Source: a virus
Taxonomy: Duplodnaviria; Caudoviricetes
Strand: one strand, 5' to 3'
DNA length: 50,008 nt
IMG/VR virus record: IMGVR_UViG_3300042923_001831
Location: 1-50,008 of that record
Shown here: positions 1 through 48,574 of the stretch, in pieces
Layout: the number at the start of each line of letters is the position of its first letter
How positions within the stretch are numbered: the stretch's first letter is position 1
Notes under the pieces: model-generated
Database searches by the model: none
Told to the model about the DNA's origin: nothing
Seen by the model: the letters and a program-made list of their open reading frames with translations, nothing else
Made by a program: the position numbers and the translations under genes

Positions 1-1080
1 ATGGTTATCTTTCTATCTTTACTATTATTTGTGAACACAGTTAGTGCAAATGAAGTTCCAAAGAAAAACACAGCATCATCATTAAATTCTGTTTCAGTAG
101 ATAAAAAGGCGATCGAAAAACTTATAAAAGCTACCGAAACCACTGCAACAACTATCAGAAAAAAAATATCGATTTCTGAACCAAATCAAATTTTAGCAAT
201 TAATGCAAAATCTATCCAAGGGTTAACTTCTGCAATTGATAAAGCTAAAATTAATTTAAAAAATTATAAGGGTAAAGATAAAGCTTCATTTGAAAAAAGA
301 TTGAAACAACCAGAACATACGCTTGGCCAAGCAAGAGTCTTTAATACCACAATCACAAATGGTGAAAAAATCCTAAAAGAAAAAGTAGCCTTTCAAAAAC
401 TTTTTACTACTCAACCCTTTAATTCAGAAAAACAGTTAAATGAATTAATAAAGAAAAACCAACAATATACAAAAGACATAAATAAACTTACATTTACCCC
501 ATCAAGAAATGCATTTTATATGAAATATCAGGAATCCTTGGAAATGATGATTAGTGATAAAACTACATTCTATAGTCTTAACAAACGCATAGAAGCCTTT
601 ATTTCTTTTACCAAAAATCATGAACCTACGGAAGTCTGGGAAGAGTTTGATAATATCTATACTAATATTTATTCATCCTTATTAGATGAAGATGATGATA
701 ATTTAATTCAGGATAAGTGGAAATCAACTTATTATCCTACATTTGTTGCCCCCGAGGAGGCCAACATCCAAAAATTTGTAAAGGATTACTATGATGCCAT
801 TAATGCTCGAGACGCAGAAGCACTGGCAGAGTTATATCCTTATGAATCAGTTGAGGAAAAAATTATTTACATTGAAGAAATTAAGGAGAGTTTAAGCAAA
901 TTACCTTCTACACAAATATTTGAGGTTTTAAATTACGATGAACTATTTGTATATGAAAATGAAGCATCTGCTTATTTTACTATGAATAGAATTGTTGATG
1001 GTATACCTTATGAAAATTTTGTAAAACTATATTTATATAAATTTGATGGTAAGTGGTTATGGGATTTAGAAAAAATGTAA
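1..1080 (+). CDS. Secreted/cell-surface protein; helical N-terminal region resembling S-layer (SbsC-like) wall-binding domain, C-terminal NTF2-like domain
   Basis: Signal peptide (LSLLLFVNTVSA); C-terminal 'IQKFVKDYYDAINARDAEALAELY...LYKFDGKWLW' is an NTF2/SnoaL-like pattern; start may lie upstream of the window. Confidence 0.5.
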   Translation: MVIFLSLLLFVNTVSANEVPKKNTASSLNSVSVDKKAIEKLIKATETTATTIRKKISISEPNQILAINAKSIQGLTSAIDKAKINLKNYKGKDKASFEKRLKQPEHTLGQARVFNTTITNGEKILKEKVAFQKLFTTQPFNSEKQLNELIKKNQQYTKDINKLTFTPSRNAFYMKYQESLEMMISDKTTFYSLNKRIEAFISFTKNHEPTEVWEEFDNIYTNIYSSLLDEDDDNLIQDKWKSTYYPTFVAPEEANIQKFVKDYYDAINARDAEALAELYPYESVEEKIIYIEEIKESLSKLPSTQIFEVLNYDELFVYENEASAYFTMNRIVDGIPYENFVKLYLYKFDGKWLWDLEKM

Positions 1081-1457: not shown

Positions 1458-1470
1458 GAAGGGGGCTTTT
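1438..1470. terminator. Bidirectional terminator between convergent genes
   Basis: A run-CCCCT...AGGGGG-CTTTT. Confidence 0.6.
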
Positions 1471-1864
1471 AAGAAACAAGTTTAATTAGTTCTTCGCATT
1501 CTACATCTTTACTAATACCTAAGTAGGATAAGAATTTGTCAAGGATAGCTTTATTTAAGTGGGTAGGAAGTACTCCCATTTCAGGTACATTTTCTTTCGA
1601 AGATTTATATACGTACTTTAAATCTACAATCGATGGTACTTTCAACCCTGAACCTGGAATGTTTTTTAATAGATAGTATCTATCTGGGTCAGAAGCAAGA
1701 TGGTGAATCTGGCTGGAAATTGTAAAATAGTAAATTTCGTTATCAGTAAACTCATATTCAATTGGTAAAAGAATAGGATGTCCACCCATTCGAAAATCCA
1801 ATAAATTTGACTGTTTAAAAGTGATGTTTTTCTTTTTTATTATTGATCCTTCAAAATAACGCAT
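1469..1864 (-). CDS. Putative PemK/MazF-like toxin of a Panacea TA pair
   Basis: 'GHPILL', 'FTISS', 'GLKVPSIVDL' follow PemK-fold motif spacing; start overlaps the antitoxin stop (TGATG). Confidence 0.55.
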   Translation of the reverse strand: MRYFEGSIIKKKNITFKQSNLLDFRMGGHPILLPIEYEFTDNEIYYFTISSQIHHLASDPDRYYLLKNIPGSGLKVPSIVDLKYVYKSSKENVPEMGVLPTHLNKAILDKFLSYLGISKDVECEELIKLVS

Positions 1865-2511
1865 CAGTATACCACCAATTCATCATCTTCTTTATAAACA
1901 AACAATTTTTGCCCTTTTATTTCATTACCAATTTCCCAAAGACTTCGAATATCATCATCAGTTAATGTAGTTTCAGATTCATCTAATGTAAAAACATTTC
2001 CATTTAGTTCATGGCTTTTATGAGTATCAATTTCTAAGTCCTTAAACGCATCATAAATTTCAACTAAAGAGGAATAATAACTAATCATCTTATCTCTTGT
2101 AATTATCGGGTTTAGCTTTTGCTTTACTTCATCTTCTAATTCTTTCCAGGGTTCTTCATTATGAGTTAATTCGACCAATTGATCCCCTGTTTGTTTACCG
2201 TATATATAATTAACAACTTTAAGGATTTTAGATGTATCTGGGTCTAAGTTCCCAACATCACCAAACCCCATAGAGGTTATTTCAGCTAAATGATTATGTC
2301 TGTATTCTCTAAAAGCATCTCTAACTACTGGGCCATTTTCCCATGCCTCAATACTATTTACAAAAAGGGGTTCACCTTTTACAGCCAAATGCATTGCTTG
2401 GGAATAGTATAATAGTTTTTGAAGTTTAATGTTCCCTTTATAAGAGGGAAAAGCAACATCACTATTGTTTTTAATAAACCATCTTGATATGTCAATTACA
2501 TCTTTGGGCAT
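1864..2511 (-). CDS. Panacea (DUF4065/SocA/GepA-like) antitoxin
   Basis: 'KLQKLLYYSQ', 'IEAWENGPVV', 'LVELTHNEEPW' are hallmark DUF4065 motifs. Confidence 0.9.
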   Translation of the reverse strand: MPKDVIDISRWFIKNNSDVAFPSYKGNIKLQKLLYYSQAMHLAVKGEPLFVNSIEAWENGPVVRDAFREYRHNHLAEITSMGFGDVGNLDPDTSKILKVVNYIYGKQTGDQLVELTHNEEPWKELEDEVKQKLNPIITRDKMISYYSSLVEIYDAFKDLEIDTHKSHELNGNVFTLDESETTLTDDDIRSLWEIGNEIKGQKLFVYKEDDELVVY

Positions 2512-2700
2512 CTCACAACACCTCTCATCGTTTCTTGTGTCTTATAATACACTATGTAATTAATATGCACAAATTGTTTCACGAATATCTGTTCTGGAAA
2601 AATAACTTTATATAATATAAAGTAGGGAAACATTCCTCAAGGCTTATCCATATGTACCAATGTTTCAAATAGTTTTAAGTAAGATTCTTTTAAGAATTAC

Positions 2701-2729
2701 AAAAAGCCCCTCTCGTTTAAAGAAGGGCA
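2701..2729 (-). terminator. Terminator after endolysin
   Basis: GCCCTTCT...AGAGGGGC-TTTTTT on minus strand. Confidence 0.65.
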
Positions 2730-2735
2730 ATGAAA

Positions 2736-3302
2736 TTATACTTTTATTACATGAACATTCTTCCGACCGTATTTTTCTTTTAACTCTGCTGCAACCTTTT
2801 CAGCTTGTTCAGTTGGCATGGAACCTGTCTTAATAAAAGCAAGTTCTTTTTGTTCCTTTTTAGGTTTTGGAATTGATCTATCGAATAAGGCTTGTTCCTC
2901 ATTTCTACGACTAACCAATCCCTGAAGAACCTTTCCTCCACCTTTATTCCACTTCTCAAACTCTACTGAAGCTTTATCGAATTGTCTCTTATTCACGTAC
3001 TCGAGTAAAGTGGACTTTTGCAATGCCCCCACTCCACAGTTATAGGCAAAGGAGACAAGTGCATCAAACTGATTTTGGTTTAATTCCACCTTCACCGCTT
3101 GATTGACACCATCCACAAATCGCTGAATGTCTTTATCAAAAAGAGCTTCAGCTTGTGCTTGTGAAATGACTTGCCCCTCTTTTACACCGGCAGTGCTGCC
3201 ATAACCAATCGTCCACACTCCTGCAGGACATTTATAGGCATTCAGTCTACAACCTTCATATTTTTTAACAAAATCTGCTCCACCCTTTGAAAGCTTCATC
3301 AT
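2736..3302 (-). CDS. Endolysin, GH24 phage lysozyme with short C-terminal (SPOR-like) tail
   Basis: 'YEGCRLNAYKCPAGVWTIGYG', 'NQNQFDALVSFAYNCG', 'GLVSRRNEE'. Confidence 0.93.
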   Translation of the reverse strand: MMKLSKGGADFVKKYEGCRLNAYKCPAGVWTIGYGSTAGVKEGQVISQAQAEALFDKDIQRFVDGVNQAVKVELNQNQFDALVSFAYNCGVGALQKSTLLEYVNKRQFDKASVEFEKWNKGGGKVLQGLVSRRNEEQALFDRSIPKPKKEQKELAFIKTGSMPTEQAEKVAAELKEKYGRKNVHVIKV

Positions 3303-3670
3303 TATTTATCAGCTCCCTTACCGAAAGACTTGAATTTATCCTTTACTTCACCTGGTAGATCAACATCGATGGCTTTTAGATTCTCCGTAATGCTTCCGCC
3401 TTCTTTATAGATGAATAAGGCTAATGTAAACCCGGTTAAATAAAAATTAAGACCCAAAACGAGGTCTATAGCAAAGACAAAGACAATTCCTACTAGCTCA
3501 CCAATCCAGCGAATGATACCATCTCTCATGATGCGTGATTCGTACTTGTTTACCCCTTTCCATGTTTTTAAAAGTCCAGAGGTAAAGTCCAGGACTTTTA
3601 CAAGAAAATAGAAAAATAGTGCATATTGAATTGGTTTTGGTAATAAGTCGAGCAAATGAATATCGAACAT
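3302..3670 (-). CDS. Phage holin (holin-4/TcdE-like)
   Basis: Three hydrophobic segments, 'LDFTSG', 'EGGSITENL'; adjacent to endolysin. Confidence 0.85.
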   Translation of the reverse strand: MFDIHLLDLLPKPIQYALFFYFLVKVLDFTSGLLKTWKGVNKYESRIMRDGIIRWIGELVGIVFVFAIDLVLGLNFYLTGFTLALFIYKEGGSITENLKAIDVDLPGEVKDKFKSFGKGADK

Positions 3671-3735
3671 TTTATCTGTCCCTTCGGAAATAAAATTAAC
3701 CCCGATCGGTTCCGGACCATACTAGGTCGTGGGGC

Positions 3736-3761
3736 ATAAAAAATACACCTTTCTAGGTGTT
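3736..3761 (-). terminator. Terminator after Ntn-hydrolase moron
   Basis: ACACCT-AGAA-AGGTGT-ATTTTTT on minus strand. Confidence 0.65.
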
Positions 3762-3821
3762 AGTTTTGTTGCACATAATCGTCCAACTACAACATAAAAA
3801 AGTCAACAAAAGTTGACTAAA

Positions 3822-4601
3822 TTAAGTAGTAGCTGCTTCCCCTTTAAAACCATATCCATTAGCCATTTTAACAAATTCTTGATAACCTCTAGCTACATGT
3901 GGCATTTTTAAAGAAAAAGTGCCATCTTCATTTTGTCTATCATTATTTTGAATTGCAATACCATTATGGCCAGCAGTAATTATATGCATATGCTTACCAA
4001 TTCCATATCTTGGGTTACTTTCTAAGAAATTTGTAATGAGGATGTTATATGCTTCTGGTAATCCAATAATCTCTGCAAATCCATATACTTGATTAAAATT
4101 TGAATCCATCCATTTTAACATTTCTTTATAGTCATCAATATTTGAACCTGAGCCTATTGATATTATTTCATGTTGATGTGCTATATAAGGTTTGAAGTCT
4201 GGTGCGCAAAGCTTTATTACAGTTGACCTAGGTACTGAATTATTTCCAATAGTTATTGCTGATTTTGGAAAAGTACCGATCATTAATAAGTGACAACCTA
4301 ATTGTTTATCAATATTTGGTGCATTACTATAAATTCTCTTTGCTTTCTTACTCCATTTTTTTGCAATATAGTCTGGTATAAATCCTCTGTCTTGTTTTTC
4401 ATTTCTAATGCAATCGGCTAACCCTTCAAGCATTTTAAAACCAAGCCTAACACTTCCAGCAAATCCAGCACCAATGTTGTTTGTAATGGGGTAAAATTTT
4501 TGCAGACAATCTTTTTCGTAATTATTTCCCCATGAAACTTTTACATCCGATAATGCAAAACTATATCCAAAAAAAGAATTAACACCTATAATCCACGTCA
4601 T
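3822..4601 (-). CDS. Proteasome beta-subunit-like Ntn hydrolase (moron)
   Basis: Met-Thr start; after Met removal T1, D18, K34, 'GFAG' and 'SIGSGS' match the T1/D17/K33/G47/GSG pattern; AT-rich relative to tail genes. Confidence 0.65.
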   Translation of the reverse strand: MTWIIGVNSFFGYSFALSDVKVSWGNNYEKDCLQKFYPITNNIGAGFAGSVRLGFKMLEGLADCIRNEKQDRGFIPDYIAKKWSKKAKRIYSNAPNIDKQLGCHLLMIGTFPKSAITIGNNSVPRSTVIKLCAPDFKPYIAHQHEIISIGSGSNIDDYKEMLKWMDSNFNQVYGFAEIIGLPEAYNILITNFLESNPRYGIGKHMHIITAGHNGIAIQNNDRQNEDGTFSLKMPHVARGYQEFVKMANGYGFKGEAATT

Positions 4602-4687
4602 AATAATTTCCTCCTTTAAGAGAATATTATCTTTATTAAAATTACTTGTAAAATGTATTTTTTCGTCCGAATGTCTTACATAGTGTC

Positions 4688-4903
4688 TTACATAGGATGC
4701 CCTTCATCCTTCTCAATTGACTTGTAACAATGGTCTTTTTCAAATGAATCTAATAATCTACAAAGCACCTTACATACTTTGCAATTCTTTTTCTTTACTC
4801 GCTTTCCCATTCTAGATGAGATTGTTTCATCTGGAAATCCGCCTAGAATTGTATTTAATAACTGATCTATCGAGATAAGTAAATTCCATATATACCTTTT
4901 CAT
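4688..4903 (-). CDS. Conserved small phage protein at tail/lysis junction
   Basis: 'NLLISIDQLLNTILGG.PDETISSR...DHC' motif typical of this position. Confidence 0.7.
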   Translation of the reverse strand: MKRYIWNLLISIDQLLNTILGGFPDETISSRMGKRVKKKNCKVCKVLCRLLDSFEKDHCYKSIEKDEGHPM

Positions 4904-4909
4904 ATCCGC

Positions 4910-5518
4910 TTACCAGCTAATTTTGTTTACTTGTTCCGAAGTTGTTGCAGCCAATACTGACGCTTCTAACGTCCAGTACTTCCCTTGTACCGTCATTTCG
5001 TGCTTCTTAATGTCGCGCGTTATTTGGTAGAATTCGTCTTCGTTAAGCGTTACTACACCCATGTTTTTTGACTTCCAGCGAATGACTGTTTCTAGGCTGT
5101 ATTCCGCTTCCGTTAGCTTCCCATCGGCTTTTCTGCTCTTAAGGAATAGTAGGTCGTTTGATTGCTTTGTGAAGTTACGCTGGTCGTGGTCTTCGTATCC
5201 GAATACTAACGCCTTGCCGTCCCTAGTTACTGTAGACGTGAATCCCGCGTAAAAGGCTTCCGTACATTTTGCTTTAAGTTCTGTAATCTTTTTTTTGCGC
5301 GCTACTTCTACAGGCTCGTAGTTCAGTTTAGCTTCGTCGAATTCTGTTTCGGTAATAGCTGTAAAGCCTTCGCCTGTAAGTTCTTGCCTTGTACCGAAGA
5401 CCATTTCTGTATAGTCCTGGTTGTATTCCCTGATTAGGATATCATTCAGATTTAAGCCTGTAGGGTAATTAATTAGTCCGTCTTCGCCTTTACTTAAGCT
5501 AGTTTTATAGAAATTCAT
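4910..5518 (-). CDS. Tail fibre assembly/chaperone-like protein (DUF4376-like)
   Basis: 'KKITELKAKC...GF...DQRNF...W' and C-terminal 'QVNKISW'; follows the fibre gene. Confidence 0.6.
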   Translation of the reverse strand: MNFYKTSLSKGEDGLINYPTGLNLNDILIREYNQDYTEMVFGTRQELTGEGFTAITETEFDEAKLNYEPVEVARKKKITELKAKCTEAFYAGFTSTVTRDGKALVFGYEDHDQRNFTKQSNDLLFLKSRKADGKLTEAEYSLETVIRWKSKNMGVVTLNEDEFYQITRDIKKHEMTVQGKYWTLEASVLAATTSEQVNKISW

Positions 5519-5531
5519 TGTTTATCTCCCC

Positions 5532-6791
5532 TTATAAAATAATAGATTCCGTCGGGTGTACGCCGTGAAGTATGGTGGTAGTCGCGTTAATCGTGACCGA
5601 TTGGCTCGACTTTTTTACTACGGCAGCGTTAGCGCCTTCTTTGACTGTAAACATGCCGCCCATACGCTTAACTAGACGCCCTTTCATAAAGAAGCTAGAC
5701 GTTAAAGTCGTGCGATTGTACACGTTTCTACATAGCACGTTATCGGACCCCCTAGTGAACATCGCATAGGAATCCTCGTTAATGATACCCATGCTTTTAG
5801 CGCCTACCGCGCCTAACGTTGTAGTGGTTGCGGCTTGTTGAAGGCTTTGACTAAGTCCGTCGACGTTTTCACCATACCACGTAGAAAATATGTGGACCAT
5901 TTTCTCGTCTGTTTGGTGGTTATACACAGAAGCGATACCGTCGCCGTAGTCGTTTATATCAGCGTTTTCCCAGTTATCCGCGTAGTAAGTGTTCCATCTA
6001 CAGTTGCATATACGACCGTCGGGTCTAGTATAGTACCAGCCGCCGTTGCTTACCAGGTGGACATAGCCGCTATCATCTACGAAGTTTCGCCCTATCGTAC
6101 CGCCGCCGTAGCTGAATTTCGGCGTCGTGTTTACGAATGTCGCGGTAGCGATGTTAAATTCCCGATAGCTGTTATTTCCTGATATGCACATATGCAGTCC
6201 GCCGTTACGCGCTACGAATATCGGCGGCTGGTTAGCTACAACCCCCGCAGCTATCACCTTTTGCGTCAAGATATTACCGTTGTAATCCATGACATAAAGG
6301 TTGTAAACGGTTGACCCGTCCGTTTCTAGCATATACAGGTTTTTACCGACCCTATCGACGGAAAAGAAAATAAGTCGGGCTGAAGCGTTGGTCCATATTC
6401 TAGTCCATGTATTCGTCGCTTCGCTGTATTTGTATAAGTCCCCTTTGTTTACATGGGACGCCCCCCATAGGTTAGCGAATATGATATCGTCCCCGTTCGG
6501 GTCCCTGACAGGGTAGAAGTTCCCGTATTGTTTATTGGTTGCGTGGGCGTGCGGCGCGGTTCCTAAAATGTTCCCAGCCTTGTCTACTTTGTAGCCATTT
6601 GCTGCGGCTGTTGGGAATATATAAAACTTGTTATGACCGCCTACGATAAGGTCTGTATTAACGGCGGTTGTAATACCCGACTGTGTGGATACGGTTCCGT
6701 ATTTGTTCATCGTTTTAGTGAAGCCGCCACCTGAAAAGGTTTTCGGTACGTTTCCGCCCCCAAAGGGTCCGCCGTGTTGTGCTATATCCAT
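5532..6791 (-). CDS. Putative receptor-binding/tail fibre tip protein
   Basis: Start MDIAQHGG with GGAGGTG RBS (ORF track starts at 6830); beta-rich, G/N/T/Y-rich; higher GC. Confidence 0.6.
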   Translation of the reverse strand: MDIAQHGGPFGGGNVPKTFSGGGFTKTMNKYGTVSTQSGITTAVNTDLIVGGHNKFYIFPTAAANGYKVDKAGNILGTAPHAHATNKQYGNFYPVRDPNGDDIIFANLWGASHVNKGDLYKYSEATNTWTRIWTNASARLIFFSVDRVGKNLYMLETDGSTVYNLYVMDYNGNILTQKVIAAGVVANQPPIFVARNGGLHMCISGNNSYREFNIATATFVNTTPKFSYGGGTIGRNFVDDSGYVHLVSNGGWYYTRPDGRICNCRWNTYYADNWENADINDYGDGIASVYNHQTDEKMVHIFSTWYGENVDGLSQSLQQAATTTTLGAVGAKSMGIINEDSYAMFTRGSDNVLCRNVYNRTTLTSSFFMKGRLVKRMGGMFTVKEGANAAVVKKSSQSVTINATTTILHGVHPTESIIL

Positions 6792-6795
6792 ACCC

Positions 6796-7134
6796 TTACA
6801 CCTCCGAAGCCAGGACGCCGTCGCTGTCATAGGTCAGGGTCCTAGTAGTCGTTTTTAGTACCGTAGTCCCGTTCGTATCGTAGTATGTCAGTGTGCGGGT
6901 TGTATACAGCGGCGTAGTTCCCCCGCTAAGCACGGACCTGATAGCTAGGGTCCCGTCTTGTCGTTTGTGTTCTATTGTTGTGTATATTCCTTCCGCGTCC
7001 TTGTTTGTCCTATAGGTTTTATAGTCCCGTAGTTCTGTTTCTTTCATCGCTTCGTCATACTGCGTCTGTACCGTGTTTCCCCAGACGCTGGATATCGTTT
7101 GACCTGGTGCTATGTTCGTTTTTTCGTATGCCAT
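6796..7134 (-). CDS. Tail fibre-associated protein
   Basis: 'KDAEGIYTTIEHKRQDGTL..RSVLSGGT.P.YTTRT' typical of Bacillales fibre adaptor segments. Confidence 0.55.
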   Translation of the reverse strand: MAYEKTNIAPGQTISSVWGNTVQTQYDEAMKETELRDYKTYRTNKDAEGIYTTIEHKRQDGTLAIRSVLSGGTTPLYTTRTLTYYDTNGTTVLKTTTRTLTYDSDGVLASEV

Positions 7135-7149
7135 TTAATAGTCCCCCCT

Positions 7150-7575
7150 TTATAGATTTTGGAAGCCGATTTCCCAGGATACAGTCGCAGTTCTTCGGTT
7201 GTCTTTCATTTCTTCGACTAACGCCCTAGCGACCAACTTCCCACTATTCGGCGTATCAGTCCCCCCTACATAAAGCCCGATTTCTTTCCAATGGAAAAGC
7301 GCTTCGTCTTTATCGAAGAAGACTTCGGCGATAGCTGCGCCGTTATCTCTTGCGACCGTCGTTATCGGCTTCCTTACTCGTTCGTTTTCTAGCTCCATGT
7401 CCCCCAATGACACAATCCTAGATCCATCTCCAACTGCCACATGGGAAAGACCTGTAGGGCCTAGACCAGCCACTAAGTCTAGTAGCCACTCTAACCCTTG
7501 TTGAATCATCATATTTTTATATTTTCGCTGCCCGTCTTTCGTTTTTATGGTGACGTTTGGCTTTACTTGTATCAT
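7150..7575 (-). CDS. Tail-collar/fibre-base-like protein, paralog of 12889..13332
   Basis: Start MIQVKPNV with GGGGGA RBS; 'N.MIQQGL', 'HVAVGDG', 'LENE..RK', 'EIGLY', 'LVAR', 'VSWEI'. Confidence 0.55.
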   Translation of the reverse strand: MIQVKPNVTIKTKDGQRKYKNMMIQQGLEWLLDLVAGLGPTGLSHVAVGDGSRIVSLGDMELENERVRKPITTVARDNGAAIAEVFFDKDEALFHWKEIGLYVGGTDTPNSGKLVARALVEEMKDNRRTATVSWEIGFQNL

Positions 7576-7585
7576 ATTTATCCCC

Positions 7586-10500
7586 CTATAATCCGAATGG
7601 GTGGGACGGATCCCCAAAAGTATGGGTATCAAAGAAGGTGATACCTCCAGTTATCTTACTGGCAGCTGGAACCGTCTCGTTAATTTTTGGTTTCACTTTC
7701 TTAACAAAATCATCTGATAATGGATGGGAATCCTTTGCCCAAGTCTTGGAACGTGAGGTTGTTTTCCAGGTCAAGACGTAGTCATCTTGTAGTGGTTGGA
7801 TATTGTCTGTAGCAGAATCTTCAATTTGACCCTTTGCGCTTCCAGTTACTCTCGTACCTATATTGGCAGGTCCTTGTAGCCATCTTTGAACGACCATATC
7901 TTCCTGACGATTGGACGATTCTAGATTTGCGAGACGCTTTGCGAATTCTTTTAGACGTTGGGCAATTCTACTTTCTGCGTTATCAGCTTTATTTAACGTT
8001 ACTCTTCTTCTAACCACTCCACCCTGTATCCATTTTTCGATTTCGGTTATTTCAAAAAGGCCCTTGGTATTATATGTTGGAAGATCTACTGTAATAAACT
8101 GACCCGCACGTAAACCGGGTACAAAAACTTCACAGCTTCCAAAGCCTTTGGGATACGCTCTATCTCGCAAAATAGCACGTCCTAATTCTCTTGCAGCCAC
8201 GACGTCTATTAAACTAGTATCGTTAATGCTTGTCTCAATACGTCCGTATTGTTGAATGCTAGAATCATCGGTTAGCTGAACCATTATCGGATACATGTAT
8301 CGGTAGATAGCTTCTAAAATTGCATCCTTTATTGGAATATTATTATCACGGAATCTAAGGGATCCTTCGTTAAAGTCCAACATGACATCAAATAGTTGCT
8401 CATCGTGTAGGTTTTGAATACCAACTCGAAGAGGTACTTTAACCCCGCCTTGTATAAGATTGACTTGAATACCACCATCGTCACCTTCGCCAAGTCGATA
8501 CGGCCTGGATCCAAGTTTGTAGATTGTATTCTGTCCATCTACTACAATCTTCTGGGTATATGGATTAGACACCCCTTGGCCACCGAAAACATATACAACG
8601 TTTGCAATGCTATCATCTTGACCAAATCTAGCAGTGCCGGCAACAATATTTTTAGATTCTTTACTTAAAGTAACAGGGTGGATTGCTGCTGAAGGTGGAT
8701 AAAATTGTAGTACCCTCTCAGCTCCATTCCATTCAACATGCCAAGACCAACCTAACAATTGTGCCAGTCTTTCGGTTACTTCGAATAAGGAGACATAATT
8801 AAAAACCTGTGTAGGCATTCCCTTTGTAGTAGCAACAACTTTGTCCAGGTTAATACTATATCCGTAATATTTTCCCCATAAGTATTTCAGGACTTCACTT
8901 ATGGTACCGGAATCTGCTGTAAACGATTCGCTTACATATACTTCTAGGGAAGCAGCAGTCCAGTCATCTACTGTGATATCCATCTCAGTTGTGATAGATC
9001 CTCTTGCACTTGTCGGATTCCCTATAATACGCCCACCGAAGTAATCTGTATTTCCAATCCCATCGACAAGATAAATGTTAACTGGTGCTCTTTGTTTAGC
9101 TAAGTTTAATATTTCGGCATTTGGGGAAGGTATTTTGAATGTCGCTGTACTGACCCGATCCTTGCCGCTATGCCGAAGGTTTAAACCATTGACCGGAATA
9201 GAAATACCATTAATAAATACCTGTTGTAACAACGTCTTCACCTTCCCCTTTATGCTATCAGCTATTCCTGTATCGTCCCAGGCTATCCCCAGGGCGTACT
9301 TAAGATATAGTTCGTCGATGATTCCTACGCCATTAGATGATACTGGGCGCTTCGTTTTTAGTCCTAGCGTTTCAGCTGTAGCGATTGCTTCCGCTAGGCC
9401 GCGCTTTGTGCTAAGTGCTAAGCTGTCCGTAAAGACCGCCTCGTCTTGCAGCATAGATTTAACCTTTGCGATAACTTCGTCGGTCGCGGCGATTAGGTCG
9501 TCCGCGCTTCGGGCTAATAGTAAGGCTGCGATAATGCTATCTGCTACTGTACTGCTATCGTCAGGCGGTAGCCCAGCGCGTTTACTCAATAATTCTGCTA
9601 AGCTCAAGGAAGTATCCTTCCGTAAACCAATGATTAATTGAAGTAATTCATCGGTTAGGCCCATTGTTTCGGCTGCGAATTTCATATTTCCGTTTAGAAT
9701 TTGATCCATGGTATCGGAATTGTCGACTAGTCTTATTCCGACTTTAGCTTTTAGCGTGTCGTTTGTCGCGATGGCTTCCTGAAGAAGGGCGGATAGCGCG
9801 AATCGGTACCCGTCCTCTACCCGGTTACTATCGCCTGAGGTGTCAAACTGCCCGCCATCCCAGCTGACCGAATCCCAGGACCCGCCTAATACATATCGGT
9901 ATAGTCTAGCGATTTCGTCCATAAGGTCGATAGTGTCGGCTGCGTTCCTTCTTGTCATTACGCCCAGAATATCCGCGGCTGCGATCGCTTCGTCGATAGG
10001 TAGTTTCGCTTTTGTTTGTAAGGTGTCTACCAGGCTGAGCGTATCGGCTAGCTGCTTACGGGCTTCGATGCATGCCGTATCGGATACGCCTACCGTATCG
10101 TCAATTGTAGTTCCGAAGCCCGATACCAGGTCGATAGTGTCCTGTAGATCGACCATTTCAGACCCTGTAACTTTTGCTTTAAGAATAAGGTCTTCCACCA
10201 GGTCGATAGCTTCCTGTAGTTCCGTCATTTCGTACTTATTCGCCAGGATGTCCGCAAGGGCGACCGTATCCGCTAGTGTTTTCATATTTTTAAGTCCGAT
10301 ACTATCGGATAGTGGTAGATTCGAATTAAGCGTTGCTGCGTATAATCCTAGAATACTGTCCACCAGGTTAATAGCTTCGTTATAAAGTAGGTTAATAGCT
10401 GCCTTTGTGTCGTCTTTGACCGATAAGCTGTCTGCTATAGCTAAGCTTATTAATAGACTAATAGAATCCGCTACCGCTGCTAGGTCGCCCGTGGCATCAA

Positions 10501-12835
10501 AAGCGGCGCTGTCCCAGGCTGCCATATCGAAGGACGACCCTAAGATTAAACGTGTAATGTTATCGATACTATCAGCTACCCTGATGATATCGTCTACTAC
10601 GCCCAACGTGACCGATAGCGCGAAGGTATCAGCTAAGGTCGTAACTGAATTAAGGATCGCGCCTATACGATTAGCTAGGGCGTCGTTTACGGTTCCCACA
10701 TCGTCTATAGTTTTCGCTATATCCTTTATGTGGTCGTCGCTAAGCGCCATTAAGTCCCCTAGAAGGGTCATAGCCTTCAGCTTATTATCGTCCGCCAGGC
10801 TTAAGGCAATTTCCGCTGCTGCCGCTTTGGCTGCTAGGGTTAGCTGTTCCGCTACTGGAAATTTGTCCCCTACGATAGCCGCTACCGACCGAAGTAAGCT
10901 GTCGGATAAATCTAGTAGGTCGTCGATATCCTTTTTAATGCTGAAGGTTGCCGTATCCCCTATGCCCGTTGTATCCCCAGGGCCAGGTCCGATATTCTTA
11001 CCCACGTCGTTATCGGATAAGTTAACCGTATCCCCAGCCGTTGGTCTTGCTTCTATACTGCTGGAATCCGTTACTCCTGTAGCGCTGTCCCCAGCTGTGC
11101 GTGGCATATCCAGCCCGCCGATAATCGTATCCGTTACCGTGCTGCTGTCGCCTGTATTCTTACCTGTTTTCGCGTCTTCGCTATCCGTTAGGGTTAGCGA
11201 AGACGCGACTACGTCCTTCACTTTTGCCGCGGTACTATCCGTTACGCCGATGGTATCCGCTAGGTTATCTTTTACTGCAACCTGAATCGCGTCCGCCAGG
11301 CTTAAGAGGTCCTCGCCTAGTATTCCGAAGCCCGTCTTAAATTCCAGGGCGTCTTCCAGGCTGATAGGGTCCCCTGACGAATCCCAGTAGGATTCATCAA
11401 AGCGACCTAGCCCGAATTCGGCGGGGATTGGTACGCCCATCTTAAAGGTCCTAGCGATATCGTCCGCCAGGCTTAAGCTATCCGATAGGACCCGCTTCGT
11501 GATGATAGCCAGGTTATCGGTCGGCGTAGCTGTGTCGTCGTTTCGGTCGGAAGCTTTCGCCTTTATGGAATCGACCGTCGTTAGAAGGTCGCCCAGGTAA
11601 TCCTCTACCCTTTTGACGATATCGTCGGAGCTGGTTACGGTATCCGCTGCGTTTGACTTTGCTTCCAGGCTGAAGTCGTCCGTTACCCCTAAACTATCAT
11701 CGGCAGCTTCAGGGCTTAACCCTTTAGCCAGGTCGTCCGCTAAACTTGTGGCGCTGGCTAGGTCCCCTTTCCCTACCGCTGTGGCGATGTTATCCAGTAC
11801 CGCCATAACGTCAGACCGTTGCGCCCGCATTTCCAGCGCTAGGGTATCCGCCAGGCTTAACATATCTGACCTGTAAGCGGTCACGGCTGCCGTGATTCCC
11901 TCTAATACGTTGACCGAATCACTTATACGCGGCTGCGCGTTACTAGTTATTGTGTCCGCTGTGTCTAACGCGATCTGGTCGGAAAGACCTCTAAGACCGC
12001 TTTTTGCCATTAGGAAATCGTTAACGGCTAGACTGTCCCCTTGTACCGCCTGGGATAGCGCTAGAAGGCTGTCCGCTAACGCGACCCCGTCTTCTAGTAA
12101 GTAGATACTTCGCTGGATAGCCGAATCATCTACGTCAACGATGTCCGCTACGTACGCCTGTATCCCCGCCCTTAAGCCAACTAATAAGCTGACGGATTCG
12201 TTTATTTGCAACTTTGCCTTTTTACGTATCGCGTCCGCCAGGCTTAAGGTATCGCCTACTGTAAGCTTCTTTAGGATTACGTCCCATTTAGCTGCGTCCC
12301 ATTGGTAGACGTCCCAGCCGTCAGTCGGTGGTTGTCCTACTGTGTGTTTAGGGGTCAAGGTATCCGATAGACTTAAAGTGTCACCATAACTTCGATACCA
12401 GGCGAAGGAAGGGTCCGTATATCTCAGCTGTAGGTTATCGATATAGACCGCGTCGTCCCCCGCTGTAGCGGACCCGTCTTTTGAGTAGACTAGCTGTAAA
12501 TTATTGTCCGAATCCTCACTTAATACTCCCGATTCCCAGTACGCCCAGCCGGTAGTCCCTGACTTTTCTAGGACCTTAACCCCGTTAAGATAGATACGAA
12601 GCCAGTCCCAGTTCAACTCTGAAGACGTGTAGTAATAAAGCGATACCTTTGCGTTAGTTGCCCCTACTGGTACCGATATATCGACGTTGTGCGTACTTGT
12701 TGAGTTGTGTCCTATAACGGCGCTACGGAAAGAATATGCCCCGTTATAGGCGCGGTTCGTGGTCCGCGTCCATGTTCCCGAATTGGAAAAGGCGGTTAAA
12801 CTACTGCCCTCGAATGTTTCTAGTATAGTCGCCAT
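7586..12835 (-). CDS. Giant tail-tip protein: N-terminal carbohydrate-binding-like beta-sandwich, about 1050 aa of 18-aa repeats, C-terminal baseplate-hub (Tal-like) region
   Basis: Position after tape measure; 'SSELNWDWLRIYLNG...YIDNL' beta-sandwich; hub-like 'IANVVYVFGG', 'DDSSIQQYGRIE', 'GLRAGQFITV'. Confidence 0.7.
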   Translation of the reverse strand: MATILETFEGSSLTAFSNSGTWTRTTNRAYNGAYSFRSAVIGHNSTSTHNVDISVPVGATNAKVSLYYYTSSELNWDWLRIYLNGVKVLEKSGTTGWAYWESGVLSEDSDNNLQLVYSKDGSATAGDDAVYIDNLQLRYTDPSFAWYRSYGDTLSLSDTLTPKHTVGQPPTDGWDVYQWDAAKWDVILKKLTVGDTLSLADAIRKKAKLQINESVSLLVGLRAGIQAYVADIVDVDDSAIQRSIYLLEDGVALADSLLALSQAVQGDSLAVNDFLMAKSGLRGLSDQIALDTADTITSNAQPRISDSVNVLEGITAAVTAYRSDMLSLADTLALEMRAQRSDVMAVLDNIATAVGKGDLASATSLADDLAKGLSPEAADDSLGVTDDFSLEAKSNAADTVTSSDDIVKRVEDYLGDLLTTVDSIKAKASDRNDDTATPTDNLAIITKRVLSDSLSLADDIARTFKMGVPIPAEFGLGRFDESYWDSSGDPISLEDALEFKTGFGILGEDLLSLADAIQVAVKDNLADTIGVTDSTAAKVKDVVASSLTLTDSEDAKTGKNTGDSSTVTDTIIGGLDMPRTAGDSATGVTDSSSIEARPTAGDTVNLSDNDVGKNIGPGPGDTTGIGDTATFSIKKDIDDLLDLSDSLLRSVAAIVGDKFPVAEQLTLAAKAAAAEIALSLADDNKLKAMTLLGDLMALSDDHIKDIAKTIDDVGTVNDALANRIGAILNSVTTLADTFALSVTLGVVDDIIRVADSIDNITRLILGSSFDMAAWDSAAFDATGDLAAVADSISLLISLAIADSLSVKDDTKAAINLLYNEAINLVDSILGLYAATLNSNLPLSDSIGLKNMKTLADTVALADILANKYEMTELQEAIDLVEDLILKAKVTGSEMVDLQDTIDLVSGFGTTIDDTVGVSDTACIEARKQLADTLSLVDTLQTKAKLPIDEAIAAADILGVMTRRNAADTIDLMDEIARLYRYVLGGSWDSVSWDGGQFDTSGDSNRVEDGYRFALSALLQEAIATNDTLKAKVGIRLVDNSDTMDQILNGNMKFAAETMGLTDELLQLIIGLRKDTSLSLAELLSKRAGLPPDDSSTVADSIIAALLLARSADDLIAATDEVIAKVKSMLQDEAVFTDSLALSTKRGLAEAIATAETLGLKTKRPVSSNGVGIIDELYLKYALGIAWDDTGIADSIKGKVKTLLQQVFINGISIPVNGLNLRHSGKDRVSTATFKIPSPNAEILNLAKQRAPVNIYLVDGIGNTDYFGGRIIGNPTSARGSITTEMDITVDDWTAASLEVYVSESFTADSGTISEVLKYLWGKYYGYSINLDKVVATTKGMPTQVFNYVSLFEVTERLAQLLGWSWHVEWNGAERVLQFYPPSAAIHPVTLSKESKNIVAGTARFGQDDSIANVVYVFGGQGVSNPYTQKIVVDGQNTIYKLGSRPYRLGEGDDGGIQVNLIQGGVKVPLRVGIQNLHDEQLFDVMLDFNEGSLRFRDNNIPIKDAILEAIYRYMYPIMVQLTDDSSIQQYGRIETSINDTSLIDVVAARELGRAILRDRAYPKGFGSCEVFVPGLRAGQFITVDLPTYNTKGLFEITEIEKWIQGGVVRRRVTLNKADNAESRIAQRLKEFAKRLANLESSNRQEDMVVQRWLQGPANIGTRVTGSAKGQIEDSATDNIQPLQDDYVLTWKTTSRSKTWAKDSHPLSDDFVKKVKPKINETVPAASKITGGITFFDTHTFGDPSHPFGL
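9240..12390 (-). repeat. Degenerate 54-bp/18-aa coding tandem repeat (xDx[LIV]x[LV]xDx[LI]...)
   Basis: e.g. GDTLSLADAIRKKAKLQI / NESVSLLVGLRAGIQAYV / EDGVALADSLLALSQAVQ; TCCGCCAGGCTTAA recurs at 10791, 11292, 11463, 11847, 12234; limits approximate. Confidence 0.85.
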
Positions 12836-12851
12836 TTAACCGCCCCCTTCC

Positions 12852-12882
12852 AAAAATAAAAGGGCAGCCGAAGCAGCCCCCC
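12852..12882 (-). terminator. Intrinsic terminator/attenuator upstream of the giant tail gene
   Basis: GGGCTGC-TTCG-GCTGCCC-TTTTATTTTT on minus strand. Confidence 0.75.
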
Positions 12883-12888
12883 AAACTT

Positions 12889-13332
12889 TTACCCGATAGT
12901 GTAAGTCCATGTTAATTCCAGGGTATCGTTTGCCCCTTTGTTAATCGCTGAAAACACGATTCGGCTATACATAGTTCCAACTGTTACAGCTGTAAAGATT
13001 CCCGCTTCCGTGATCGCACCGGTACCTACACCAGCACCGAAAGTCGCAACATTTGTTACAACATTTCCTGATCTTGTTTTAGTTAAAGCTTGACGAGTTC
13101 CTGTTTCAGCAACGAGTGCTGTATTTGCAACTGCTGGAGCAGTTGTACCAGTCCCAATCCCCATGTGTGTTGGTTTTGGGATGGTAGGTGCTGCTAACAA
13201 TTGATCAGCAATTCCTTGCTTTCCTGTGTCCACAATCAAATTGTACCCTAAGTCTTTCTCTTCTTTTAATTTCCCATTTGAATCTAATAATCTAGCTTTA
13301 ACAAATCCGATTGTTAATAATTGTTCTTCCAT
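12889..13332 (-). CDS. Virion structural protein (147 aa), tail-collar/fibre-subunit-like
   Basis: Start MEEQLL with AGGAGG RBS; 'NLIVDTGK', 'HMGIGTGTTAP', 'GAITEAGIF', 'LELTWTYTI'. Confidence 0.6.
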   Translation of the reverse strand: MEEQLLTIGFVKARLLDSNGKLKEEKDLGYNLIVDTGKQGIADQLLAAPTIPKPTHMGIGTGTTAPAVANTALVAETGTRQALTKTRSGNVVTNVATFGAGVGTGAITEAGIFTAVTVGTMYSRIVFSAINKGANDTLELTWTYTIG

Positions 13333-13345
13333 GAATGGTTTCCTC

Positions 13346-13909
13346 CTAAAATGTTGGAATTTGATTGACAAAACTCATATCACTTGTGAGATTAGTAATG
13401 GGATGAGGTCTCGCTTTGATAGAAATAGATGGTTCAGAAATCTTCTGAACACCGTACCCCAGACCTTGCAAAATTCCTTTGCAATAAAAAAAGCAATGCT
13501 TAAGATAAGCACCGCTTAAGGTTGGAACATATATATCTACCTGGAATCGTTTTGGATTGTTTCTTTGCTCTTCAATAGAAGGGGAAGTCCAACCTATTAC
13601 TTTGTTGTTCTCAGTAATAGTTGAGCCTCCCATTAATTCCTCAAACAACTGCATATTTAAATGATTAGTTGTTAGGCTAAAGTCAGCACCAAGAATAGTA
13701 TCATCTTCTTCGTGCACCTCGATAACCCCTATTCCATCCGCTTTATCGATAATTCTTTCCCCTTGTTCGATTAGTGTTTGGATGGGTATGTCTGTTACTC
13801 CATAAATTTTAATGGGGTTGCTAGTAGCGAGTCCCTTTTCAGTTAGAGGAGTTATTGTTACTAGCTTGACACCCCTTAATATTTGACGCATTTCTATTGC
13901 AGTTGTCAT
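13346..13909 (-). CDS. Distal tail (Dit-position) protein with tail-tube-like pattern
   Basis: First full gene after tape measure; tube-fold-like beta pattern. Confidence 0.5.
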   Translation of the reverse strand: MTTAIEMRQILRGVKLVTITPLTEKGLATSNPIKIYGVTDIPIQTLIEQGERIIDKADGIGVIEVHEEDDTILGADFSLTTNHLNMQLFEELMGGSTITENNKVIGWTSPSIEEQRNNPKRFQVDIYVPTLSGAYLKHCFFYCKGILQGLGYGVQKISEPSISIKARPHPITNLTSDMSFVNQIPTF

Positions 13910-13988
13910 TTGTGTTCACCGCCTCATCTCCAACAGTGTTCATTAATACAATCGAGATAGAATCCGATGGGGTTATATTTTCGTTCAT
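13839..13988 (-). CDS. 49-aa ORF carrying one 18-aa repeat-like unit
   Basis: Strong RBS AAGGAGGG; MNENITPSDSISIVLMNTVGDEAV...; overlaps next gene out of frame. Confidence 0.35.
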   Translation of the reverse strand: MNENITPSDSISIVLMNTVGDEAVNTNDNCNRNASNIKGCQASNNNSSN

Positions 13989-14003
13989 CTAGTATCCCTC
14001 CTT

Positions 14004-19028: not shown

Positions 19029-19041
19029 GTTTTTTCACCTC

Positions 19042-19541
19042 CTATCCAAGAATTTGGTCGATGTATACCGCTTCTTTTTCCTGCTTCTCTGCTTTTCTGC
19101 GTGCTAAAAGCTGTAGATGGTATACAATGTCCATCTCATCTATTTGATTTTGCGTGAAGCCAATCTCTATTAACGCGTTGTACATATCGAGGACCGCTTC
19201 GCGCAATGTTAGTTTTTTGGGTCTTGGTTACCTTCCCCATCTGATAGCAACTTACTTGCTTGTTCGATATTCCCAATGACATAATTGACAGTCGCATAAA
19301 CTGTTTTTAGTAATTTACGAGAATCAATTCCATTTTCGAATTGATTAATATCAAATTGATTTCCAAATGCATCACAAACAAATTGCATTTGATTGTCTAA
19401 ATCTAGATTCCCCCCTGCTTTTCCTTCAAAATTGTCAGCGATTTCTGATGCTTTTCTGAACAATTTACCAGGAATAAAGGACGGGGAAACATAACGTTTT
19501 TCTTCATTTTCAATAATCAATACAATAGTCATGGAATTCAT
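19042..19541 (-). CDS. Tail assembly chaperone gpGT via -1 frameshift
   Basis: Slippery CCCAAAAAAC (19221-19212) just before the gpG stop; -1 frame open: KKLTLREAVLDMYNALIEIGFTQNQIDEMDIVYHLQLL...YIDQILG*. Confidence 0.85.
19209..19541 (-). CDS. Tail assembly chaperone gpG
   Basis: Between tail tube and tape measure; 'FGNQFDINQFENGIDS'. Confidence 0.88.
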   Translation of the reverse strand: MNSMTIVLIIENEEKRYVSPSFIPGKLFRKASEIADNFEGKAGGNLDLDNQMQFVCDAFGNQFDINQFENGIDSRKLLKTVYATVNYVIGNIEQASKLLSDGEGNQDPKN

Positions 19542-19565
19542 TTCTGATTTCCTCCTTAGATTTTT

Positions 19566-19600
19566 AAAATAAAAAAGAGAGAGAATTTAATCTCTCTCTT
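19566..19600 (-). terminator. Terminator after major tail gene
   Basis: AAGAGAGAGA-TTAAAT-TCTCTCTCTT-TTTT. Confidence 0.75.
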
Positions 19601-19607
19601 AAACGAA

Positions 19608-20183
19608 TTAAACAGTTGGTGTTAGTACAGAACCTGCGTAGACAACCTTTTCAAACCACTTTCCACCTTGAGTAAAGCTCGTGCCATCCTCCGCCTGTCC
19701 TTTCCAACGACCATTATATTGAAGTGGCATGAATTTCAATTTTAGCTTTGCTGTTTGCGGTGCTGGTTTTCCTTCCTCCGTTTTTCCTTCCACTGGTAAG
19801 AGCTCTGGTTTTCCTTTTAAAAACCAGTAGTAGCGATAACCGCCTGTGGAAAGTCTTGAACGAAATCCAAGTGCAAGTTCAATGGTTTTATCGTTAATAG
19901 ATGCAAATTGAACACCGTTTTCCTCTGTATGGCCAAAGATTTTCTTTTGTAGCGCAAGTGGAAGGTCTGTAGCTTCAATTTCAACATCAATGTCTCCAAG
20001 TGTATTTAATACTGCGTATGAACTGTTGTCAGCCCATACAGTTTCACTTTCTGTTTTTGGATCCACTTTGACATTTACTGCACCTGGTAATTTTTCAGGT
20101 GCTGCATAAGTAACGCTGGTCGCGTCATCTTCTGTTAATTCCGCGATATGGAACATATCTAATCCTGTAAGTACTTTTGTCAC
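19608..20183 (-). CDS. Major tail protein (phi13 family)
   Basis: 'WADN', 'ALGFRS', 'YRYYWFLKGK', 'WFEKV'. Confidence 0.92.
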   Translation of the reverse strand: MTKVLTGLDMFHIAELTEDDATSVTYAAPEKLPGAVNVKVDPKTESETVWADNSSYAVLNTLGDIDVEIEATDLPLALQKKIFGHTEENGVQFASINDKTIELALGFRSRLSTGGYRYYWFLKGKPELLPVEGKTEEGKPAPQTAKLKLKFMPLQYNGRWKGQAEDGTSFTQGGKWFEKVVYAGSVLTPTV

Positions 20184-48501: not shown

Positions 48502-48574
48502 AAAGTGGCATCATTTAACAGGGGTATTAACGAGGTATTTTATATATGATTAAGGATTGAAAGGAGGTAATACC

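Follow-up and report, generated by a model that had tools for sequence, protein, structure and literature searches.

Why a temperate phage should carry a lone proteasome-like protease, and what such an enzyme might do for the phage or its host, is the question raised by a gene in the IMG/VR virus record IMGVR_UViG_3300042923_001831 (Caudoviricetes), which was analyzed over its entire length of 50,008 nt and is referred to below as the window. The gene occupies positions 3822–4601 on the minus strand (ATG start, with the TAA stop at 3822–3824 included) and encodes a 259-aa stand-alone Ntn (N-terminal nucleophile) threonine hydrolase of the proteasome-β/HslV type, an assignment that draws on homologues, an AlphaFold2 (AF2) model and fold matches; no other open reading frame (ORF) of at least 50 aa overlaps it on either strand. 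The evidence suggests that its product is probably a cytoplasmic, self-contained Ntn threonine hydrolase, encoded by horizontally acquired cargo in a complete temperate prophage, where it lies at the junction between tail and lysis genes.

Family, catalytic residues and fold

The gene is far beyond chance, since homologues of its product reach an E value of 2.7e-133 and an exhaustive search of 1.84 billion representatives matched 518 clusters (counted at 50% identity) at E ≤ 1e-3, with 350 at E ≤ 1e-10 and 61 at E ≤ 1e-30; of 347 candidates from a word-indexed search, 100 were relatives at E ≤ 1e-3. Members are nearly all 250–290 aa in length (median 264 aa). Of ten clusters looked up, six were nameless and four had a name from a source, in every case 'hypothetical protein', and matches in the ESM Atlas likewise consist solely of unnamed 'hypothetical protein' clusters; no PHROG family matches the window protein. 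The nearest named homologue is encoded by Psychrobacillus sp. INOP01 (68% identity) and the nearest relative overall (P0002) is 76% identical; P0002 to P0007, among which is the protein of the Psychrobacillus sp. INOP01 chromosome, span 61–76% identity.

In proteasome-type Ntn hydrolases, the scissile bond is attacked by Thr1 through its free α-amino and hydroxyl groups, assisted by Lys33 and Asp17, and the oxyanion is stabilized by Gly47. The catalytic Thr of Escherichia coli HslV lies directly after the initiator Met and is exposed by its plain removal, and methionine aminopeptidase tolerates Thr at P1′. The window protein begins Met-Thr-Trp-Ile-Ile-Gly, and Thr2 (codon 4596–4598, minus strand, as are all features of the gene given here) is the predicted N-terminal nucleophile after Met1 removal, according to both the alignment and a structural match. 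Profile alignment to HslV places Asp19 (4545–4547) and Lys35 (4497–4499), the latter inside an invariant D-C-L-Q-K sequence, at the positions of proteasome Asp17 and Lys33; counted from the Thr they are residues 18 and 34, an offset of one from the canonical numbering. The sequence G46-F-A-G49 (4455–4466) aligns with GFAGS of HslV chains and corresponds to the GFAG/Gly47 oxyanion region of HslV and the proteasome, and I149-G-S-G-S153 (4143–4157) corresponds, through a weak second-domain alignment to IGSGG of HslV, to the Gly128-Ser129-Gly130 turn of the proteasome and the GSGG turn of HslV. The original prediction for this locus, made from the DNA sequence, had named the Thr after Met, the Asp and Lys at near-canonical spacing and the GFAG and IGSGS motifs, all of which are present at the residues indicated.

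Conservation was counted in an alignment of 237 members, with gaps left out in each column. The presumed nucleophile, on whose conservation in homologues the original prediction depended, is Thr in 208 of 209 members and Ser in the remaining one, 28 members being N-terminally short. A single residue, the initiator, precedes it in 190/209, and where the ORF caller had extended the N-terminus an in-frame Met or Val codon is still found directly ahead of Thr-Trp. Asp19 (235/235), Lys35 (236/236), Phe47 and Gly49 (236/236 each) and Gly150 (235/235) are invariant, and position 151 is Ser in 179/237 and Cys in 31/237. Since practically all members have the Thr immediately after the start codon, activation is likely to proceed without autoprocessing: host methionine aminopeptidase would strip Met1 to leave Thr as residue 1, with no propeptide involved. 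The Thr hydroxyl, activated by its own amino group, Lys35 and Asp19, would then attack a peptide (amide) bond, the glycine of GFAG would provide the oxyanion hole, and a dedicated ATPase or co-encoded partner would not be needed. Conservation of the complete triad, of the glycine in the oxyanion region and of the GSG turn makes it likely that the protein is an active Thr-nucleophile peptidase that works without a dedicated unfoldase. Catalytic activity and cleavage of peptide bonds are in this sense presumed, as is the timing of expression.

The tie to known families appears faint but consistent at the sequence level. HslV equivalog models matched the window protein at E values of 0.036 and 0.059, and PF00227, the family of 20S proteasome β subunits, was detected at E ≤ 0.01 in 6 of 43 aligned relatives (best 3.5e-7). 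When the family profile was compared with the PDB it recovered 13 HslV chains (best E 0.0018), with D19, K35 and GFAGS falling on their HslV counterparts; HslV was the only family reached by sequence in this search, which gave no Anbu or BPH chains at E ≤ 10.

The AF2 model, built from a 43-row alignment, has a mean pLDDT of 95.0 and a pTM of 0.91, with no residue under 70, and Foldseek gave it at least 500 matches in the PDB at E ≤ 0.001, the top rows all being 20S β subunits (best match Mycobacterium tuberculosis 3krd_R, E 8.3e-9, TM 0.63/0.71). An independent VIA-align scan of 48,161 chains placed 20S β (8adn_W; Z 19.7, rmsd 2.5 Å, 187 residues aligned) ahead of a designed Anbu (5loy_A; Z 17.2), HslV (1m4y_A; Z 16.1) and BPH (5ovs_A; Z 13.8), with various chains of NAAA, acid ceramidase and acylases at Z ~8–11. 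Residue 2 of the model falls on chain residue 1, the catalytic Thr, in most of these matches, among them 8oix_H, 6e5b_K, 5loy_A, 1m4y_A, 5ovs_A and the connectase 6zw0_A, and the alignments imply that the Thr/Asp/Lys triad is juxtaposed in space. At the level of the predicted model, the proteasome-β/HslV-type Ntn fold that had been proposed for the protein is supported. In BFVD, 26 viral proteins matched at E ≤ 0.001, all of them distant (TMq ≤ 0.51, ≤ 19% identity), and no close viral structural relative was found there.

The resemblance to 20S β subunits (PF00227; for example M. tuberculosis PrcB and the archaeal and eukaryotic subunits) thus comprises the best structural match, a Thr1/Asp17/Lys33-type triad, a GxxG oxyanion region and the GSG turn, whereas sequence identity is 12–16% and the hydrolase lacks a propeptide, has no AAA+ partner in the provirus and is about 60 residues longer. 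Added to a β core of ~200 residues are a long S6/S7-type hairpin at 103–132 (strands 103–118 and 121–132), a short helix (96–101) after H2, an extra helix (169–179) between the H3-like and H4-like helices, and a C-terminal helix (240–249) followed by a conserved tail. Of 220 full-length members, 102 end in Cys, 64 in Ala and 14 in Thr, and 148 have Ala at position −3; in the window protein the terminal residues 254–259 are encoded by 3825–3842, and the secondary structure of the AF2 model has a β-bridge at residue 258. A subgroup of 283–294 aa, mostly from Acidobacteriota, carries an insertion of 20–30 residues past the N220 region (alignment columns ~318–346, after residue ~225), which is missing from the clade of phage and Bacillota sequences described below. 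A three-copy complex prediction scored 0.00 against a mark of 0.42, a result that has no bearing on oligomerization.

The same structural comparison bears on the suggestion, also made in the original prediction, that the protein might not be a hydrolase but a protein ligase or transpeptidase resembling connectase, with sequence specificity. Connectase (the MJ0548 family) has the Thr1 Ntn fold and chemistry, is likewise a stand-alone enzyme without an ATPase, and shows that the fold is able to ligate (abstract of PMC7980362). It is however the most distant of the proteasome-like structures in the scan, with Z 9.7 over 139 aligned residues versus Z 19.7 over 187 for 20S β. The description of connectase in Fuchs, Alva and Lupas (2021; PMC8665760) has it without H1 and H2 and with a two-helix insertion between S3 and S4. 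The model of the window protein differs on both counts, since its helices 51–66 and 76–92 form an H1/H2 pair and some five residues separate strands 21–23 and 29–31, the site of the connectase insertion, so that ligase activity of this kind is highly improbable and the suggestion found no support.

Genomic neighborhoods and related families

The neighborhoods of the family were compared across 39 sources, namely the window, two viral loci and 36 genome loci. The genome loci were gathered with a search pattern (DCLQK…) that biases the sample, and comprise 24 from Acidobacteriota, five from Chloroflexota, two from Omnitrophota and one each from Desulfosporosinus, Thermodesulfobacteriota, Vulcanimicrobiaceae, Nitrospira and Verrucomicrobiota. 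When the 529 ORFs located no more than 7 kb from the gene were clustered, the hydrolase family itself was present in 37/39 sources, and the next-largest cluster occurred in four loci at varied distances and orientations; no neighbor family is conserved across the 39 sources, each being found in four at most. In the 50-kb provirus, neither PF00004 (AAA) nor PF07724 (AAA_2) was detected, both of which were positive in 14/14 control genomes, host HslU/CodX lying outside that search. The family profile matched only the hydrolase gene in the provirus; absence of an α subunit rests on that profile, no search with PF00227 having been made. No fused forms of 455–2000 aa were found, which is weak evidence, and the 150 best representatives reach 357 aa at most. 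It is well supported, as had been predicted, that the gene stands alone.

Individual loci provide some further observations. Within the GTDB phylum of the Desulfosporosinus genome the family was found in 1 of 401 sampled genomes, that one being the genome at the center of the sample. This copy, from Desulfosporosinus fructosivorans (locus L004, 8001–8655), is 57% identical to the window protein, is split over two frames and ends at about residue 179; judged from its sequence it is a pseudogene, and the only Bacillota copy found in an isolate genome. Two near-duplicate Acidobacteriaceae loci (L034 and L035, 8013–10501) contain a truncated 128-aa copy, covering residues 6–112, that overlaps by 4 nt a 701-aa reverse transcriptase matching the PADLOC family RT_UG19 at E 2e-152. 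This arrangement may represent a reverse transcriptase element inserted into the gene, or a fusion remnant.

The immediate neighbors, two on each side of the gene, form a set of 134 ORFs after seven of 141 were dropped. Phage_integrase was the most frequent Pfam family among them with three occurrences, followed by Fic, RES, RVT_1 and Sel1 with two each, and the rest of the top 25 families occurred once and are mostly housekeeping enzymes. Four ORFs stand at the top of the PADLOC tally, two RT_UG19 (from the near-duplicate L034 and L035) and two SoFic, and the neighbors of the hydrolase are not clearly enriched in defense genes.

HslV (ClpQ/CodW), the bacterial Thr protease of two rings whose partner ATPase is HslU, is the one family reached by sequence in the PDB and has a comparable structure (D19/K35/GFAGS; Z 16.1), but is a protein of ~175 aa compared with 259 aa here, and neither an hslU-type AAA_2 gene in the provirus nor a conserved neighbor in the 39 sources accompanies the hydrolase. 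Anbu and BPH share the fold, with their Thr1 on residue 2 of the model, and have no known dedicated unfoldase; no conserved operon partners of the Anbu type are among the 134 neighbor ORFs.

A closer parallel is offered by the 22 new prokaryotic proteasome-like families described by Fuchs, Alva and Lupas (2021; PMC8665760), to which the comparison extends through the family descriptions. According to these, all 22 conserve Thr/Ser1-Asp17-Lys33-Gly47 and none has a propeptide, co-occurring AAA+ genes and informative gene contexts are lacking, and there is almost no clue to function. Like the hydrolase, they are divergent and stand alone with Thr, Asp and Lys conserved, and some are borne by phages or prophages, Table 1 of that paper giving PPH, AAH, CPH, PMI-4 and DAH as families occurring in phages. 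PPH, termed there the first true viral member, has ~140 residues and lacks H2, whereas the hydrolase has 259 residues and both helices H1 and H2; identity with PPH was considered and is ruled out by this length and by the presence of H2. PMI-2 to PMI-6 are described as having one more helix between H3 and H4, and the hydrolase resembles the PMI families in having such an insertion (helix 169–179); insertions at this point are argued in the same source to be able to prevent the stacking of double rings (PMC8665760). Set beside these families by their descriptions, the hydrolase family is either new among the stand-alone proteasome homologues or possibly already listed among them.

Probable cargo in a temperate prophage

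The window is the entire IMG/VR record, which is classed as a provirus with a CheckV completeness of 100%. A large serine recombinase is encoded at the right end (48557–50008), and the remaining genes include those for a D12 methyltransferase, a Bro-N/ANT antirepressor, a DnaB helicase, an SMC-like AAA_23 protein, TerL, portal and major capsid proteins; the recombinase together with the TerL, portal, capsid, DnaB and antirepressor genes indicates a complete temperate tailed phage. Upstream of the hydrolase is a tail-fiber gene (4910–5518) matching DUF4376 and a PHROG tail-fiber family, with larger tail genes beyond, and downstream are a holin (Phage_holin_4_1; 3302–3670) and an endolysin (Phage_lysozyme; 2736–3302), in agreement with the location between tail and holin genes originally given. 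A 71-aa Cys-rich gene (4688–4903, minus strand; phrog_3342, E 1.6e-21; 31.9% GC) lies just upstream. Together with the hydrolase gene it makes up an AT-rich stretch, flanked by tail and lysis genes of higher GC content, and the two may have been inserted as one cargo segment, although it is not linked to the hydrolase in the other loci. The hydrolase gene has 31.7% GC versus 37.3% for the whole window, and its flanks have 42.2 and 48.3% (tail-fiber genes), 36.3% (holin) and 39.7% (lysozyme), so that the AT-richness noted earlier for the gene holds.

Expression signals were also part of the original prediction, and two of them are borne out. A Shine-Dalgarno sequence, AAGGAGG, is readily discerned 8 nt ahead of the ATG (4610–4616, minus strand), as expected of a strong ribosome binding site, and two terminator-like sites follow the stop codon on the same strand. 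The first, at 3801–3818, begins 4 nt past the stop and consists of a hairpin with a 7-bp stem followed by UUUUUUAUG; the second, at 3745–3760, has a 6-bp stem and a U-tract and lies ahead of the holin gene, where it was detected by a terminator scan and by folding. Six terminator-like sites occur in 3200–5600 compared with 1.7 ± 1.4 in shuffled sequences, and the 160-nt terminator stretch folds more stably than its shuffles (z = −2.44). The 86-bp gap upstream of the gene contains a promoter-like TTTACA-17-TAATAT (4624–4652, minus strand) that matches the consensus at 9/12 positions, a consensus match being all that supports it.

Comparison with other phages suggests that the segment is mobile. 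The hydrolase was found in none of 14 IMG/VR loci with a related holin (52–93% identical), among ORFs of at least 50 aa at E ≤ 1e-4; the holin was matched in all 14 and the lysozyme in two, and in most of them small ORFs follow directly after the tail genes. The probable source sample also has a 25.7-kb contig of a related phage, which shows 12 differences from the window over the holin and ceases to resemble it precisely at 3670, where the holin begins. In another locus (L045), the 1 kb ahead of an 81%-identical relative has nothing in common with the neighbors of the gene in the window. On the basis of its composition, the terminators and its absence from the 14 related-holin loci, the gene is very likely to be cargo in the phage. 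A viral contig (L001) carries a 43%-identical copy in a comparable place, between tail/baseplate proteins and an Amidase_2 endolysin (phrog_521 at 3834–4421, phrog_4577 at 6577–7371 and the endolysin at 9758–10477). Neither this homologue nor any of the eight neighbors in L002 matched a PHROG family. In a maximum-likelihood tree of 38 sequences, midpoint-rooted and with L002 on a very long branch, the window protein, seven close relatives and the L001 protein form one clade (support 100/98), which is nested among sequences from Omnitrophota, Acidobacteriota and Chloroflexota. It thus seems that a small clade of Bacillota and phage sequences is carried at the tail-to-lysis junction. Further searches with material from the locus returned little: megablast of 2700–20000 against phages and a viral scan with the DUF4376 tail protein gave no matches, and an alignment of close relatives found nothing in a viral scan and one 1,375-bp contig in a metagenome scan.

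Proximity to the lysis cassette in two viral contigs raises the possibility of an accessory amidase that is let out through the holin and cuts the peptide stems of peptidoglycan beside the lysozyme. Ntn hydrolases do include linear-amide hydrolases, such as the penicillin acylases and bile-salt hydrolases that scored Z 8–9 in the VIA-align scan, but the catalytic residues here are of the proteasome and not the acylase type, no cell-wall-binding domain is present, and the N-terminus is the catalytic Thr, leaving no signal peptide. The pair of terminator-like sites separates the hydrolase from the holin, most homologues occur in non-phage contexts, and all 14 phage loci with a related holin do without the gene. 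A role in lysis is therefore extremely improbable.

Other features of the locus are recorded here for completeness. Relatives of the 71-aa protein were found by tblastn in 17 phage records, from Caulobacter, Xanthomonas, Acidithiobacillus, Mannheimia and others, which marks it, to judge from these matches, as a widely travelling small phage gene. Past the lysis cassette is an AT-rich pair of genes (1469–2511, minus strand; 31–32% GC), the first encoding a 215-aa SocA/Panacea antitoxin-like protein (PF13274, E 2.4e-19; phrog_1281) with a weak match of its C-terminus to a GajA model (E 1e-5), and the second, which overlaps it by one base, encoding 131 aa without a family match; the pair looks like a PanA-type toxin-antitoxin system or defense cargo. 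The ORF at the left end (1–1080, plus strand; 359 aa, 29% GC) has a hydrophobic N-terminus and an S-layer-type SbsC_C domain (E 1.2e-10), and could be host flank or surface-modifying cargo. As the closest named homologue is from Psychrobacillus, the left-end ORF has an SbsC_C domain and a soil metagenome is the only full holder of the sequence among sequencing runs, the host is probably a soil member of the Bacillota. Three other soil runs, from three studies, have short contigs over parts of the hydrolase gene with 1–3 base differences, one of them with an additional 12-nt gap; in a soil run other than the probable source, a contig close to the window misses 12 nt at 4672, in the intergenic stretch ahead of the gene. 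No RNA run was listed as holding the gene; one labelled metatranscriptomic but flagged as probably DNA has a 261-nt contig with two differences inside the gene (4064–4324), and was not counted as expression.

The original prediction also proposed a defense factor expressed by the lysogen, and a single-gene defense or superinfection-exclusion system, in which a component of an incoming phage either sets off the protease or is cut by it, would agree with several features of the locus: the moron-like anatomy and AT-rich cargo composition, the patchy and horizontally scattered distribution with mixed neighbors (three integrases, two Fic, two RES and two reverse transcriptases among 134), and the Panacea/SocA antitoxin-like pair past the lysis genes of the same prophage. 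The protein itself nevertheless matched no family in PADLOC-DB v2 at E ≤ 0.1, and a check of its neighbors for defense islands gave a weak signal, the four PADLOC ORFs in 134 including the RT_UG19 pair from near-identical loci, while most of the top-listed neighbor families are housekeeping enzymes. A literature search, which was not exhaustive, gave no tie of proteasome-like homologues to anti-phage defense. Together with the missing PHROG match, these results lend the defense proposal no backing, and a lysogen-expressed system of this kind is unlikely.

Possible roles of the hydrolase

A number of observations count against a self-contained peptidase carried as independent phage cargo. The match of the protein to PF00227 (E 0.051) scores 13.7 bits, under the gathering cut-off of 22.4 bits, and those to TIGR03692 (13.8 bits versus 157.75) and NF003964 (13.0 bits versus 137) fall further short. 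Ntn hydrolases also cut amides other than peptide bonds, so it is the proteasome-type triad by itself that points to the class of substrate. Position 202 (3996–3998), within a G-I-S-x-H motif, is Ser in 214/237 members and Gly in the window protein and eight others. From its place just ahead of strand S9 it may be the equivalent of proteasome Ser169, in which case activity could be altered. The original prediction described the gene as a moron, and its composition, its terminators and its absence from the related-holin loci uphold that description; a promoter of its own is a candidate at most, because seven promoter-like sites compared with 9.0 ± 2.5 in shuffled sequences are not above chance, and autonomous expression of the moron type, or expression in the lysogen, would be no more than a possibility. 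The gene is co-oriented with the late genes and could be read together with them. Finally, tblastn against 50,697 GenBank phage records gave no matches, and 2.9 million IMG/VR contigs yielded two loci besides the window; the family is therefore rare in viruses, and a phage-specific role is not implied for the family overall.

The substitution at position 202 is one of the few signs that the gene might be a decaying or inactive passenger with no current function. Ser202 is otherwise near-invariant, the Desulfosporosinus relative is frame-broken and truncated, and the copies in L034 and L035 are truncated as well. The window gene is, however, a full-length ORF in which all invariant family residues are intact, and it is preceded by a strong Shine-Dalgarno sequence. 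The nearest relative also has Gly202, so the variant has persisted. Compared over 89 codons with the 81%-identical metagenomic relative, 72/89 residues and 199/267 bases are identical, and the low level of amino-acid change (pN 0.118) when synonymous change is saturated (pS 0.81) indicates purifying selection on the gene. A passenger without function is thus very unlikely.

Another reading is an accessory protease of the lytic cycle, transcribed with the late operon and degrading or processing a host protein (for example one involved in defense or stress) or a phage protein, in counter-defense or takeover. The gene lies inside the late region in the orientation of the tail and lysis genes, a member of the same clade occupies the same tail-to-lysis slot in a second viral contig, and late read-through is plausible given that the promoter-like site is not above chance. 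Set against this are the two terminator-like hairpins between hydrolase and holin, a composition unlike that of the late genes, the absence of the gene from the 50,697 sequenced phages, and the chromosomal location of most members outside recognizable phage contexts (36 genome loci, with integrases among 3/134 neighbors). A dedicated lytic-cycle role is a minor possibility on this evidence.

For the self-contained threonine hydrolase carried as cargo, the role ranked first is action on a specific cytoplasmic target in phage-host conflict, either as late counter-defense or as defense of the lysogen; a general ATP-independent peptidase ranks second, and a ligase or a role in lysis third. As a committed guess, the enzyme would benefit the phage or the lysogen by cleaving a specific cytoplasmic protein or peptide, or a small number of them. 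A part in phage-host conflict can be put forward tentatively at best. The C-terminus offers a more particular variant: because members of the family have Ala as the third residue from the end and Cys, Ala or Thr as the last, and a β-bridge is present at residue 258 of the model, the tail might dock in a substrate cleft, either that of its own subunit or that of a neighbor. It is conceivable, if improbable, that a phage-mobilized, ATPase-independent threonine protease acts as a lone conflict effector on a protein of host immunity or of a rival phage and is gated by its own conserved C-terminus.

Orphan relatives of the proteasome are numerous in the genomes of bacteria and phages, and stand-alone homologues without partners, including phage-borne ones, are already in print (PMC8665760). 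What is added here is a family documented over at least 518 clusters, in which the MTW start is invariant and the C-terminus is conserved as A-x-(C/A/T), and a small phage-associated clade at the tail-to-lysis junction. The hydrolase therefore contributes a well-documented family and a phage-borne clade to a described class, and does not constitute a new class. It also provides a clean experimental handle, being small, confidently modelled and equipped with the full catalytic set without partner genes, and its source is a prophage that is complete and looks inducible, while another phage has a copy in the same slot. Discovery of its target would show what cellular job a proteasome-type enzyme free of both ATPase and propeptide performs, and whether phages turn such enzymes on their hosts or competitors. 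A tail-gated conflict effector, if true, would be the first function for any orphan stand-alone proteasome homologue.

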